This document shows positions 1 to 4,050 of a stretch of 38,441 bases of DNA, in pieces; positions within the stretch are counted from its first letter, which is position 1; each line of letters begins with the position of its first letter. Position numbers and translations under genes: made by a program. This stretch comes from a virus (taxonomy: Duplodnaviria; Heunggongvirae; Uroviricota; Caudoviricetes). The notes below the pieces were generated by a model that worked only from the letters and a program-made list of their open reading frames with translations, had not been told where the DNA came from and searched no databases. The stretch is taken from IMG/VR virus record IMGVR_UViG_2802429225_000008, one strand, 5' to 3'.

Positions 1-723
1 TTACGGGGTAATGCCAACCGCTGCCGCCACTTTGTCGCCACTAGTGCTTTGTTTTTCGAATTCATCTAAGGCTCTTTCAACATCAGAAAGATACTCTTTG
101 AATGAGTTCAAGATCATGCTTAACGAGCCCCCCATAAATAGGACCTGTTTTCCATCTTTTTTAAAAAAATCAGGATATTTTTCTATAAGTTCAATAATGC
201 TTTTAATATTTTGCCCATCGTTTTCTAAGTATTTTGCATCATTATGCGCACAACTGTTTCTTAATTTTGTTATTTTTTTGATATTCGAATAGTGGGATGT
301 TGACTTCATCCCTATCATTTTTTTGATAAATAGATGGCTCCTCTCAAATCCACTTCCTTTGAGATCTGAAACATTTATAGGAGAATGATGTCTATTAGCA
401 AAGTTGTTACAGAATTTTTCTATTTCGTGCTCAAAAATTCCGAATATAGTTAAGAATACTGACCTGCGGATAATACTTGGGTAGTATTCTAAAAACATTT
501 CATCGAGATCTAGCGATGAGCTGGTGAGTCCCATGTAATGATCAATTGACTGGTATACACCATCTTCCGGAGATATTTCAATTATATATTCTTCAGGTCC
601 TTTGTCTTTATATTCTGCTATGCCCTTAGCGATTGATGATTCGCTATGAGTGATTAACGTCTCGATAATATCAAATGTTAAGGAGAAGTCGAATATTGGT
701 AATTGAAACAAAAACTTAACCAT
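1..723 (-). CDS. HEPN-motif protein (Rx4H: RNSCAH), AT-rich cargo gene between attL and int; C-terminus runs off the window
   Basis: ORF 1..756 on the minus strand contains ...KLRNSCAHND..., a canonical HEPN Rx4-6H motif. Likely start is the second ATG at 723 (AAGG 7 nt upstream); an ATG at 756 would overlap int by 23 nt. No stop codon before position 1. Confidence 0.55.
   Translation of the reverse strand: MVKFLFQLPIFDFSLTFDIIETLITHSESSIAKGIAEYKDKGPEEYIIEISPEDGVYQSIDHYMGLTSSSLDLDEMFLEYYPSIIRRSVFLTIFGIFEHEIEKFCNNFANRHHSPINVSDLKGSGFERSHLFIKKMIGMKSTSHYSNIKKITKLRNSCAHNDAKYLENDGQNIKSIIELIEKYPDFFKKDGKQVLFMGGSLSMILNSFKEYLSDVERALDEFEKQSTSGDKVAAAVGITP
19..42. repeat. attL: Putative attL core (cgctgccgccactttgtcgccact), direct repeat of 35585-35608
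   Basis: 22 of 24 positions identical to the sequence immediately after the ogr stop codon; lies beyond the int/cargo end of the prophage. Confidence 0.5.
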
Positions 724-733
724 GCTTGAACCT

Positions 734-1765
734 TTAAGAATCTGATTTAGTAACATCCAAAGTTGCTAGTGGATTGAAACGAAGAGCTGTCTCTAAGTGA
801 TCAGGTGATAGATGAGCATAACGCATAGTCATTTTTATGTCGTGATGTCCGAGGATTTTTTGCAAAGCAAGGATGTTTCCACCCGACATCATGAAATGCG
901 CCGCAAACGTATGACGCAGAACGTGTGTAAGTTGACCGCGAGGGAGCACGATAGACGTTTTTTCCATCACGGATAAAAATTGAAAATAGCAGTCTGTGAA
1001 GAAATTGAACCCATCAAGCGCCATGATCTCTTCATAAAGCTCTTTACTGATAGGGATGCTTCTGTTTTTCTTCCCCTTCGTTCTTACAAAGGTAATTCGG
1101 TATTTGGTCACCTGTGATCGGGTAAGGTTTATTGCTTCTCGCCAGCGTGCGCCTGTGCTTAAGCATATCTTGACTACCAGTGCCAGAATTGGGTCCTGAC
1201 GTTTGCAATCATCCAGCAGTTCAACAATCTGCTCATGGGTAAGCCATGCCATCTCTTTTTCTGCGATGGTGAATTTTCGCATGTTCTCCAGTGGGTTTGG
1301 ATACGACCATTCGCCCAGGCGGGATAGTTCGCTAAAAACACTACTTAGATAGCTTTGCTCTAGGTTAATGGTGACCGGGCTGGCCCCTTTCTTCCATTTC
1401 TCGCTGAAATAGATCTCACCTGTCAGTCGTTTATCTCGATAATGGGCAAACATTTTAGATGTGAGATCGGTTGCAAGGGGATTGCCCAGAGCGTCAACCA
1501 TCAGCAGCAATTTGTCATAGACATGCTGCCCAGCAGTCAGAGATTTACCATGTAGTTTGAACCATAGCTCAACCACGTCTTTCAGGGTTCGACGATCTAC
1601 TGATTCGCCCAGCCAGGGCTTTGCTTCGGTTTCTTCCATCGTGTGACGCTCAAAAGCCAGTGCTTCGCCTTTGGTGGCGAATTGTTTACGCACACGACGC
1701 CCACTACGTCCGGCGGGGTAACATTCGCAAAGCCATTTTCCTGTGGTGAGTTTTCGTACTGCCAT
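734..1765 (-). CDS. int: Tyrosine recombinase, P2-type phage integrase
   Basis: Translation carries the conserved C-terminal integrase box (...LTHVLRHTFAAHFMMSGGNILALQKILGHHDIKMTMRYAHL...) and resembles P2 Int throughout; start taken at the internal ATG 1763-1765 (MAVRKLTTGKW...). Confidence 0.9.
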   Translation of the reverse strand: MAVRKLTTGKWLCECYPAGRSGRRVRKQFATKGEALAFERHTMEETEAKPWLGESVDRRTLKDVVELWFKLHGKSLTAGQHVYDKLLLMVDALGNPLATDLTSKMFAHYRDKRLTGEIYFSEKWKKGASPVTINLEQSYLSSVFSELSRLGEWSYPNPLENMRKFTIAEKEMAWLTHEQIVELLDDCKRQDPILALVVKICLSTGARWREAINLTRSQVTKYRITFVRTKGKKNRSIPISKELYEEIMALDGFNFFTDCYFQFLSVMEKTSIVLPRGQLTHVLRHTFAAHFMMSGGNILALQKILGHHDIKMTMRYAHLSPDHLETALRFNPLATLDVTKSDS

Positions 1766-1951
1766 AAAAAATGCCCTCCAGTAGAGAGCATTTTTACTGT
1801 ATGTATAACCAGTGTCAATGTATGAAATCCTGCGACCATACATCTCACTGAAGCCATAATGAAGTTAGCTATTTTTTGCTATGTGAGTATGTGACTTTTG
1901 CGGTTAGCCTGCGGCTCATTGTTATATTAGGCGCAGATATAAAAGCAAAAT

Positions 1952-2143
1952 TTATCGCGAGTTTTTAGTACAGATTTTTTTTGATTTACTAATAGTTCCA
2001 TCATTGCAAACGAACTTTCCATCGGAGGTACAGTGAGAGACACCTCCCTTTTTCCCAGAACAAGGATAATTTTTAGCATAGGTAGTTAGTGGGTTTAATA
2101 ACAAAGAGCATGATAAAACCACAAAAAATACCTTACCAAGCAT
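1952..2143 (-). CDS. Small secreted Cys-rich peptide (63 aa; predicted signal peptide, 4 Cys in the mature part)
   Basis: Strong RBS (GGGAGGA) upstream of the ATG; hydrophobic N-terminus [23 protein letters not shown] followed by KNYPCSG...C...C...C; sits in AT-rich DNA between int and cI. Confidence 0.5.
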
Positions 2144-2158
2144 AGTTTCCTCCCGGTA

Positions 2159-2815
2159 TTACCTAACGTACTTAATTGTTAAACTTATAATTTTCCCAAT
2201 TATTTCAACATCTTCTATCTTGCACTCGAAGGCTCTGTTTCCACCTTCAACGAAGATTCTTCCACCGGGTAAACGAGTAATGTCGCGGATTGTTATTTCG
2301 CCATCAATACTTATTACCCATTTACCATCACGTATATCATCAAATTCTTTATCACAAATAAATTCAGAATTGTTATCTGTGATGACAAAAGGTTTTTTAA
2401 ACGTAGAGGGTAGAAATCCCTTATCAAAAATATAAAAACCGTCTTCACGCAAGGCACCATCAGATAATACATATTTAGCAACTTCCATAGTATTTGTATT
2501 ACCTGAAGTTTGCTTTGAACCATTTCCAGTTGTGAGCCAATTAAGCGAGGTGCCCGTTTCAAGGGCGCACTGGATTACCCAATCTGCCGGAAAAATATCA
2601 CGCATATAGCGCGTTGCCATGGTGCTCTTAGAAACACCTAAATGATCACAGAGAGCCTGACGGGTACCGAACCCATATGCTTCAACTAAACGTTCTATGG
2701 CTTTCTTACCGCCGCTATTGAAATCCACAAGTCCTCCAAAGAAATCCAAAATTCGTTGGCAGATTCCAAAAGCGATCTTAAAGTTGAACCAGAAGTGTTC
2801 TTTTGGAGCCTTCAC
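2159..2815 (-). CDS. cI: CI-type immunity repressor (HTH), 186-like
   Basis: HTH-like segment GFGTRQALCDHLGVSKSTMATRYMRD; divergent from apl/cox and cII as in phage 186. True start may be an internal GTG after a GGAGG (giving ~189 aa) rather than the first ATG. Confidence 0.7.
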   Translation of the reverse strand: MKAPKEHFWFNFKIAFGICQRILDFFGGLVDFNSGGKKAIERLVEAYGFGTRQALCDHLGVSKSTMATRYMRDIFPADWVIQCALETGTSLNWLTTGNGSKQTSGNTNTMEVAKYVLSDGALREDGFYIFDKGFLPSTFKKPFVITDNNSEFICDKEFDDIRDGKWVISIDGEITIRDITRLPGGRIFVEGGNRAFECKIEDVEIIGKIISLTIKYVR

Positions 2816-2873
2816 TACTAATCACGACAAACAACGGCTCGCCACAAGCCATATCTAGAAGGAATGTTGCCTT

Positions 2874-3077
2874 ATGACACCTAACATTTCAATTACTCTG
2901 AATACACCACATGTCACAATCGAACGTTATAGCGAACTGACTGGCCTTTCTATTGATACGATTAACGACATGTTGGCTGATGGCCGACTACCTCGTCATC
3001 GTCTTCGTAAAGACAAAAAACGTGAAAAGGTAATGATTAACCTGGCTGCTCTGACTGTTGATGCTTTGTCTGCTTAA
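2874..3077 (+). CDS. Apl/Cox-like excisionase and transcriptional regulator (small HTH protein)
   Basis: 67-aa ORF divergent from cI with RBS AAGGAA; position and size match apl of 186 and cox of P2. Confidence 0.65.
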
Positions 3078-3658: not shown

Positions 3659-3955
3659 ATGCTGACGAAAGAACCATCATTTGCATCGCTGCTGGTAAAA
3701 CAAAGCCCGGCAATGCACTACGGTCACGGCTGGATCATGGGTGAGGATGGTAAACGCTGGCATCCGTGCCGTTCACAAGATGAATTGCTGTCTGAATTGA
3801 CCACGGGGAAACGGAGAAAGTCAAAATGTATGCAGCGGAAAGTGAAGTGGTTTATCAGTTTCGTTACAGAGGGGAGAGTTATTCAGTACCTGAAGATGAT
3901 TTGCTCTGTTGTTATCCGTCGTTGTCGGGCGATGGCAGTTACTTTTTCACGCTAA
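3659..3955 (+). CDS. Hypothetical early protein (Fil-like position)
   Basis: ORF with RBS AGGTG before ATG 3659; overlaps the next ORF by 130 nt in another frame, so its extent is uncertain. Confidence 0.4.
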   Translation: MLTKEPSFASLLVKQSPAMHYGHGWIMGEDGKRWHPCRSQDELLSELTTGKRRKSKCMQRKVKWFISFVTEGRVIQYLKMICSVVIRRCRAMAVTFSR

Positions 3956-4050
3956 AGGATGGGACGTTTTTACGGGGAGAGCAGGTTAAAGAGATGATAC
4001 GAAAAAATATATCTCCTCTTGAGCGTTACCGTAAGAACAAAGAGCGATAG
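3826..4050 (+). CDS. Hypothetical early protein
   Basis: ATG 3826 preceded by GGAGAAAG; 74-aa ORF. Confidence 0.5.
   Translation: MYAAESEVVYQFRYRGESYSVPEDDLLCCYPSLSGDGSYFFTLKDGTFLRGEQVKEMIRKNISPLERYRKNKER

Follow-up and report, generated by a model that had tools for sequence, protein, structure and literature searches.

The gene located between the cI repressor gene and the integrase gene (int) described here is very probably a cargo gene of the lysogenic-conversion type, encoding an exported mini-protein of the YdcA family. It is carried on a stretch of 38,441 nucleotides from a virus of the Caudoviricetes (IMG/VR record IMGVR_UViG_2802429225_000008); this whole stretch is called the window in the following. 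Our main reading, to which we give a probability of about one half, is that the product is a periplasmic YdcA binding module which is made in the lysogen, perhaps for superinfection exclusion. Judged by its sequence the gene is no orphan: its membership of the named YdcA family was missed in a preliminary description of the locus. It can now be listed as a catalogued prophage cargo gene, present in about one ninth of the complete E. coli genomes, and as a candidate member of two known kinds, the YdcA family and the exported cargo of lysogeny modules. The leads which come out of the analysis are the tight coupling of the gene to cI, the finding of its domain at the N-terminus of secreted nucleases from three unrelated families, and a possible relationship to the Legionella protein Dis2.

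The features of the locus are collected in Table 1. The 63-aa ORF of the preliminary description is present and its translation is exactly the one quoted there; the range originally given, 1850-2158, also takes in 3' spacer DNA (the spacer is 1766-1951). The genes cI, ydcA and int have one orientation, all leftward, with cI immediately upstream of ydcA and with ydcA 186 nt upstream of int. On the minus strand the junction between cI and ydcA reads TAA (the cI stop)-TACCGGGAGGAAACT-ATG, which places the ydcA start 15 nt past the cI stop. The ribosome binding site had been called very strong, and this holds: there are 5 nt from the GGAGG core to the start, the ideal spacing, and GGGAGGA is kept in 78 of 80 related IMG/VR loci, the other two having GGGAGTA. 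The gene had also been placed in AT-rich DNA, correctly, as the GC content is 0.35-0.37 across 1801-2200 (ydcA), while int and cII have 0.46-0.51; a GC content as low as that of ydcA is also seen in the 3' half of cI.

Table 1. Features of the cI-ydcA-int region (positions in the window)
Feature	Position	Strand	Basis
cI repressor gene, 186 type	2159..2728	-	Pfam Phage_CI_repr + Phage_CI_C; RefSeq annotation
Shine-Dalgarno GGGAGGA	2148..2154	-	direct reading
YdcA-family CDS (63 aa + stop)	1952..2143	-	ORF list, sequence, HMM matches
Predicted signal peptide, residues 1-23; SPase I cleavage predicted after TYA	2075..2143	-	homolog alignment
Mature 40-residue domain, 4 Cys, net charge +7	1955..2074	-	alignment, AF2 model, variant counts
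A8 homopolymer within CDS, codons ~54-57	1975..1982	-	sequence
AT-rich spacer ydcA/int, 186 nt	1766..1951	-	between ydcA and int
Tyrosine integrase (int), downstream of ydcA	734..1765	-	Pfam Int_N + Phage_integrase; RefSeq annotation

The spacer between ydcA and int is without an ORF of note. It contains a hairpin (1898-1914) and a weak promoter-like site (1818-1790, minus strand), both of which come from consensus scans only. A consensus scan found no T-tailed terminator on the minus strand between cI and int, and an Rfam scan of 1600-3000 gave no family at E <= 1. It may be noted here that cI is presumed to be the first gene of the lysogenic operon. A RefSeq locus of 99.8% identity carries the same gene annotations, and the RefSeq entries for the ydcA ORF are WP_001321204.1 and WP_000900883.1, the second of which is named 'YdcA family protein'. 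In E. coli genomes RefSeq names the ORF either 'hypothetical protein' (many cases) or 'YdcA family protein'.

The protein matches the NCBIfam model NF007463 (PRK10040.1-2) with 116.1 bits against a cutoff of 93, over profile positions 1-58 of 58 (E ~4e-34), and it matches phrog_6000 with E 4.6e-34. Pfam family PF27300 ('YdcA') is precomputed on a cluster representative with a sequence identical to the window protein; the Pfam copy which we searched gave only a sub-threshold match to GULLO2, and it missed PF27300 because that family is newer than the copy. The protein shares 57% of its residues with YdcA of E. coli K-12 (b1419), and 73% within the mature domain (E 1e-19). For K-12 YdcA, which has 57 aa, a periplasmic location is predicted, and no function is known (bioRxiv 10.1101/2024.02.12.579971). 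From its 57 positions NF007462 (PRK10040.1-1) appears to be the equivalog model for K-12 YdcA. With this model the window protein reaches 68 bits where the cutoff is 118, and this shortfall indicates that it is a paralogue, not an orthologue, of K-12 YdcA. When 1.84 billion cluster representatives were searched with a profile, 422 family clusters came out at E <= 1e-3, 261 of these at E <= 1e-10. The lpg1681 family (NCBIfam NF052673) was tried and rejected as a chance match, with E 0.11 for the window protein and E 0.066 for one of 18 homologs. The UniRef cluster name 'Conjugal transfer protein' was set aside as an unverified submitter label without support in the HMM libraries.

Four Cys, two Gly and one Ser are invariant across 113 domain sequences, and these four cysteines are the ones of the mature region of about 40 residues which had been pointed out before. 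The consensus for the end of the domain in the same 113 sequences is (2-5)-F-V-C-N-D-G-S-x-S-x-S-K-K-x-C, and all columns which are invariant or near-invariant in alignments of 18 and of 113 sequences are found in the window protein. Its mature cysteines are C28, C38, C46 and C58; an extra one, Cys12, lies in the signal peptide and is not conserved. The predicted leader has a K-containing n-region, a hydrophobic core of 12 residues and T-Y-A at -3 to -1. Alignment of the 18 homologs bears out this signal peptide, which the preliminary description had predicted: the Ala at -1 (Ala23) is invariant, the hydrophobic core is variable, and the cleavage context is x-A-x-A followed by K/R/A/N. The invariant Ala together with the unconserved Cys12 points to an ordinary SPase I signal peptide with no lipobox. 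A lipoprotein like the exclusion factors of the Cor or Llp type was considered and rejected, as the sole early cysteine, C12, is inside the h-region and unconserved and no lipobox is found at the cleavage site. The domain starts at most 45 residues from the N-terminus in 131 of 146 family representatives (median residue 26). AlphaFold (AF2) predicts the mature domain as a beta-hairpin braced by disulfides (pLDDT 80), and the domain has no catalytic features. We infer that the product is exported and periplasmic and that it contains two disulfides.

The ORF is short, its surroundings are AT-rich, it is often annotated as a 'hypothetical protein' and frameshift alleles occur, all of which would suit a chance ORF in spacer DNA which is no gene at all. 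The frameshift alleles in public assemblies (P0002, P0004, P0068, P0037) arise at the A8 run, and the frameshifted cluster members enter an overlapping frame after SKSKK; P0068 has 71 aa and is found on 14 contigs. The reading as a chance ORF can practically be dismissed, and the conservation pattern refutes it. The int-ydcA-cI segment of 1151 nt is found with at least 80% coverage in 624 of 5,426 complete E. coli genomes, the exact protein is deposited on at least 1000 public contigs, and 524 IMG/VR contigs carry a related locus. Polymorphism was analyzed in the best 80 of these IMG/VR loci, which are all of one prophage type with 98-100% identity and are not informative on the diversity of contexts. 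The ORF is intact in all 80. They contain 10 nucleotide alleles, in which 19 codons vary synonymously and 4 non-synonymously. The non-synonymous changes are all in residues 5-24; the only one outside the signal peptide is K24R, at the first mature residue. To this come the HMM E-values of about 1e-34 and the 422 family clusters at 50% identity.

The comparison with a sister E. coli prophage (P0010 type) carries the argument further. Its int is 98% identical to that of the window, its cI just 64%, and the DNA flanking ydcA is unrelated on both sides (23-27% identity). In the mature part of ydcA 19 codons are identical, 17 differ synonymously and 2 non-synonymously, while 16 of the 23 signal peptide codons differ non-synonymously with hydrophobicity retained. 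This codon pattern is that of a coding cassette in which the mature product is tightly constrained and the leader is merely kept hydrophobic. The ydcA gene is under strong purifying selection. The preliminary description had proposed a search for homologs in other prophages and had taken lack of conservation as a ground for giving the gene up; homologs are found, and that ground clearly falls away. A megablast search of the segment against sequenced phages gave no close isolate, matching just 74 nt at the 5' end of int in Klebsiella phages.

In the annotated record of phage 186 the cI and int genes share one base, and the lysogenic pL operon is cI-int-orf69. Since cI and int abut in 186, ydcA is an addition to the core lysogeny module, in agreement with the earlier view that no gene is known here in core P2/186 genomes and that this one looks like a moron. 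Relatives hold different cargo at the same place. The cI/int junction of Klebsiella phage 4LV2017 has a hypothetical gene of 1050 nt, that of Escherichia phage 813R9 has an 'ATPase' gene of 1677 nt, and the sister prophage of the P0010 type has the order cI-YdcA-KAP NTPase-int, in which the KAP NTPase matches the PADLOC candidate PDC-S20 with 570 bits. The window protein itself matches no family of PADLOC-DB 2.0 at E <= 0.01. In a 2026 survey of P2-like prophages the integrase-primase and integrase-att intervals were minor defence hotspots (PMC13586616). The window gene fits the layout of superinfection exclusion (sie) genes in lysogeny modules: it is in the interval between repressor and integrase, on the same strand, with no terminator and with a predicted exported product.

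The gene follows directly after a cI gene of the 186 type in three lineages. The distance from the cI stop to the ydcA start is the 15 nt given above in the window type and 23 nt in the P0010 type (L009), and the two overlap by 1 nt in the Haemophilus HP2/S2 type (HP2 and L025). The record of Haemophilus phage HP2 has the YdcA ORF without annotation. Between the window and HP2 the identity is 76% for the mature YdcA domain, 36% for cI and 50% for int, which makes YdcA the best-conserved lysogeny-module protein between the P2-family phages of E. coli and Haemophilus. Other placements occur as well. In Acinetobacter and Moraxella prophages the YdcA gene is in the tail module, between the tail tube and tape-measure genes, and a DUF4236 gene comes next after it in all four A. 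baumannii prophage loci examined; in a Citrobacter lambdoid prophage it is in the nin region. Such placements mean that expression there need not be lysogenic. Outside phages, members of the family occur on chromosomes as well as on plasmids of Acinetobacter and rhizobia, and from these members it follows that the core function of YdcA is not phage-specific.

Information on what this core function could be comes from larger proteins which begin with the domain. Among the best 150 family representatives an Endonuclease_NS domain is fused C-terminal to the YdcA domain in 5-6 proteins (P0185, P0217, P0123, P0182, P0150 and, by eye, P0131), an SNase domain in 2 (P0114, P0206) and a PLD-like domain (PLDc_2) in 1 (P0178); a further one (P0189) has a weak HNH match. 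The layout is YdcA domain, linker, then nuclease, and some proteins have two or three YdcA copies in tandem. One N-terminal module on three unrelated nuclease folds suggests a part in localisation or binding rather than in catalysis. The mean net charge is +3.9 for stand-alone domains and +1.3 for nuclease-fused ones, several of which are at 0 to +1; the window mature peptide has +7. The nearly neutral charge of the nuclease-fused copies weakens electrostatic DNA binding as the conserved function.

[quoted passage not shown] A phmmer search gave E 3e-5 with the Cys/Gly motif aligned (C-S-K-x-G-G-I-x-x-C-...-L-V-C-N-N-G-x-x-S) and a weaker match to the second lobe. In a Foldseek search of the PDB the top two matches were Dis2 (probability 0.9, TMq 0.58-0.64, 38% identity) and all others had a probability of at most 0.11. 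The link is weakened by a profile search of the PDB, where Dis2 appeared with E 0.079, about the level of LDL-receptor class A repeats; on this score it should be called a look-alike of the YdcA family and not a member. A homology search which started from the first Dis2 lobe found no candidate. The two lobes of Dis2 are similar and are pinned by five disulfides, and the protein adjoins the outer membrane (PMC8486379); it contacts the lipoproteins DotK, DotC and DotD, and the assembly proceeds without it (PMC12716638). The Dot/Icm papers describe Dis2 as Legionella-specific and report no structural relatives (PMC8486379, PMC12716638).

The model which we propose starts from the ydcA cassette as cargo (a 'moron') which a 186-like prophage has taken up at the junction of cI and int; ydcA would be expressed during lysogeny, together with cI, from the repressor (pL) transcript. 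The same orientation, the 15-nt gap, the gene's own strong ribosome binding site and the missing terminator make expression from the pL transcript most likely, and co-transcription of ydcA with cI is considered probable from this arrangement. After export the signal peptide would be cleaved, and the basic domain of about 40 residues would fold in the periplasm with two disulfides. The domain would then dock to the outer membrane from the periplasmic side by binding an envelope component. A docking or binding role at the underside of the outer membrane may be proposed because the small domain always stands directly behind a signal peptide, because it is the N-terminal module of secreted nucleases with three unrelated folds, and because Dis2, an accessory subunit, is clamped on outer-membrane lipoproteins. 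The likeliest benefit to the prophage would be superinfection exclusion, in which the entry of foreign phage DNA would be blocked. This last step is tentative, a reasonable guess more than an expectation; it is suggested by the periplasmic exclusion protein Glo, which is encoded at the same place in phage K139, and also by sie genes like ltp. A much wider formulation would make YdcA a general docking module of the outer-membrane underside which stations nucleases there, was duplicated as Dis2 on a T4SS, and was captured in free-standing form by temperate phages of several families and linked to the repressor transcript, so that in the lysogen it would occupy the docking site and block entry of foreign DNA, from phages and possibly by transformation or conjugation. 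We offer it as a speculation that is improbable as it stands. If it were true, ydcA and Legionella Dis2 would share a function, and the gene would be a new, very small and widespread exclusion factor.

A different model is that the product acts as a fitness factor in envelope or acid stress, the prophage copy being an added dose or a variant of the host YdcA function in tolerance to acid and organic acids. It is based on the finding that deletion of ydcA in E. coli W gives sensitivity to 300 mM 3-hydroxypropionate (3-HP) (PMC7642389), and on earlier work which, according to the same paper, reported induction of ydcA at pH 5 under the control of YdcI. The 73% identity of the mature domains and the wide occurrence of the family outside phages are in line with it. 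However, the 3-HP phenotype is suppressed by deletion of yieP (PMC7642389), the prophage protein belongs to the other equivalog, NF007463, as its low NF007462 score tells, and a gene found repeatedly right behind cI, with defence candidates as neighbours, looks more like cargo for exclusion or defence. We regard the stress model as unlikely. A somewhat different use of the periplasmic location is hypothesized if the peptide binds nucleic acids, serving as the substrate module in the nucleases and, when it stands alone, trapping or shielding incoming DNA, which would act against transformation or block injection. The fusions to Endonuclease_NS, SNase, PLDc_2 and, weakly, HNH would then be explained, and the charges of +7 for the window peptide and +3.9 on average for stand-alone domains would fit; Haemophilus, Moraxella and Acinetobacter, which are naturally competent, are among the phage hosts, and in a Citrobacter type VI secretion (T6SS) cluster a YdcA-domain gene adjoins a GIY-YIG nuclease gene. 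This is at variance with the charge of the nuclease-fused domains, which at a mean of +1.3 are the least basic, the opposite of the electrostatic expectation. Also, it is Cys, Gly and Ser which are invariant and not Lys or Arg, and Dis2, the only solved look-alike, binds proteins and not DNA. DNA binding is a rather unlikely explanation on this balance.

Two further models may be considered for a peptide of this size. One makes it a periplasmic protease inhibitor on a small cystine-stabilised scaffold. Six chains of potato type II (Pin-II) inhibitors were matched weakly in the PDB sequence search (E 0.24-2.2), and one metagenome annotation names the homolog P0330 after a 'serine proteinase B / inhibitor complex'. 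The Pin-II matches are not significant, though, and Pin-II inhibitors have eight cysteines in a different pattern against four here; a conserved reactive-site loop is lacking, Foldseek did not return inhibitor folds, and the nuclease fusions would be left unexplained. The protease inhibitor is accordingly very improbable. The other, which deserves still less credit, is a secreted cationic antimicrobial peptide or bacteriocin-like toxin against competitors. The predicted product is indeed small, cationic, Cys-stabilised and exported, but an immunity gene, a dedicated exporter, a lysis gene and a route over the outer membrane are all absent nearby, the same species has housekeeping chromosomal paralogues, and the domain heads larger enzymes.

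The Ltp protein of Streptococcus thermophilus phage TP-J34 prevents superinfecting phages from injecting their DNA; it is exported, and its gene belongs to the lysogeny module and is transcribed in the prophage (PMC3952083). Ltp is unrelated in fold and sequence and comes from a phage of a Gram-positive host; it is a lipoprotein, whereas the window protein is without a lipobox. The position is matched more closely in Vibrio cholerae phage K139 of the P2 family (Peduoviridae), in which the lysogenic genes are ordered PL-cI-orf2-glo-int and the annotation of glo reads 'periplasmic protein; involved in phage exclusion'. Glo is cited as a soluble periplasmic sie protein in PMC3952083. Glo, like the window protein, has a signal peptide and is encoded between cI and int in a leftward lysogenic operon of a P2-family phage. 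It differs in having 137 aa, in not being Cys-rich and in having orf2 between cI and glo, and it has no sequence similarity to the window protein (BLASTP E 0.17). As the two are not homologous, the parallel rests on position and compartment only.

Dis2 resembles the predicted window product in being a small periplasmic disulfide-pinned unit with an aligned Cys/Gly motif. The window protein is a single lobe with four cysteines, in contrast to the two tandem lobes and five disulfides of Dis2, and its gene has cI and int as neighbours with T4SS genes absent, whereas Dis2 belongs to the Dot/Icm T4SS. K-12 YdcA with its family (Pfam PF27300; NCBIfam PRK10040 group NF007462/63/64; phrog_6000) is also among the closest known systems. 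K-12 ydcA is chromosomal, whereas the window gene is phage-borne, and the signal peptide and the genomic context differ. Like the window protein, K-12 YdcA and the family consist of a signal peptide and one four-Cys domain of about 35 residues, and the motif PCSGxKGG[IV]xxC...F[VI]CxDGxxSxSKKxC is common to the window protein and the YdcA family.

The YdcA domain, encoded by the 63-codon ydcA gene between cI and int, is also found as a building block of larger proteins. In nine of the family representatives (P0185, P0217, P0123, P0182, P0150, P0114, P0206, P0178 and P0189) it forms an N-terminal module located right behind the signal peptide. The nucleases fused to the domain, which are predicted to be secreted, belong to three unrelated folds, Endonuclease_NS, SNase and PLD-like; besides these there is one weak HNH case. 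Other members of the family carry a PBCV_basic_adap-like cysteine motif at the C-terminus. A Citrobacter plasmid carries, within a type VI secretion cluster, the gene for a 133-aa protein whose YdcA domain is N-terminal; this gene adjoins one of the GIY-YIG nuclease family. Coordinates of the features discussed are presented in the table.

Table. Location of the features in the window and in other loci carrying YdcA-family genes (L-numbers)
Feature	Location	Strand	Remark
251-aa ORF	window 1..756	-	between int and prophage end
A8 run inside the ydcA coding sequence	window 1975-1982	-	
fil homolog, annotated as truncated (C-terminus missing)	window 3659-3814		from RefSeq locus 99.8% identical
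74-aa hypothetical ORF after the truncated fil homolog	window 3826-4050		from RefSeq locus 99.8% identical
YdcA-family ORF, complete, 59 aa	L003, NC_003315.1 ~2489-2668	- in record	Haemophilus phage HP2
YdcA gene, then second gene 8 nt on	L007 3938-4578		Moraxella phage Mcat17
cI, YdcA allele P0010, 443-aa KAP NTPase, int (in this order)	L009-L013 5001-6529		sister E. coli 186-like prophage
133-aa protein with N-terminal YdcA domain	L020 4926-6727, NZ_CP053574.1		Citrobacter sp. TSA-1 plasmid
YdcA gene and DUF4236 gene	L021-L024 6001-6600		A. baumannii prophages

In the prophages of Acinetobacter baumannii the YdcA gene is followed downstream by a DUF4236 gene in all four loci read; the gap measures 91 nt in L022 and 8 nt in each of the other three. 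The pair is situated within a variable block that lies between the tail-tube and tape-measure genes. The A. baumannii YdcA protein is indexed in 4,261 blocks of the collection. Here and in the Moraxella phage, the YdcA gene and the gene downstream of it possibly constitute a two-gene unit. The records of the Haemophilus phages HP2 and S2 have no annotation for the 59-aa ORF (product sequence, 60 protein letters, not shown); in HP2 its ATG overlaps the stop codon of cI by one base.

The A8 run is the place where ydcA alleles in public assemblies are frameshifted: an overlapping frame is entered after ...SKSKK and the fourth cysteine is absent. One of them, P0068, is 71 aa long and present on 14 contigs, and P0002, P0004, P0037 and P0058 are frameshift alleles resembling it. 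These alleles could be homopolymer sequencing errors or the result of real slippage.

At the position corresponding to the truncated fil homolog, relatives have an intact Fil of 98 aa. The 251-aa ORF shares 23 nt with the 3' end of int, and its DNA is very AT-rich (GC 0.30-0.38). The matches to HEPN RiboL-PSP (Pfam) and to HEC-01A (PADLOC) are both weak, with E values of 0.005, and among the best 80 related IMG/VR loci only about 3 have the corresponding extra ~700 nt past int. The ORF has the look of variable cargo, for defence or abortive infection, placed in the int-att interval that PMC13586616 describes as a hotspot.

In the sister prophage, int is 98% identical to that of the window whereas cI is only 64% identical, and the KAP NTPase scores 570 bits to the candidate defence system PDC-S20 in PADLOC.
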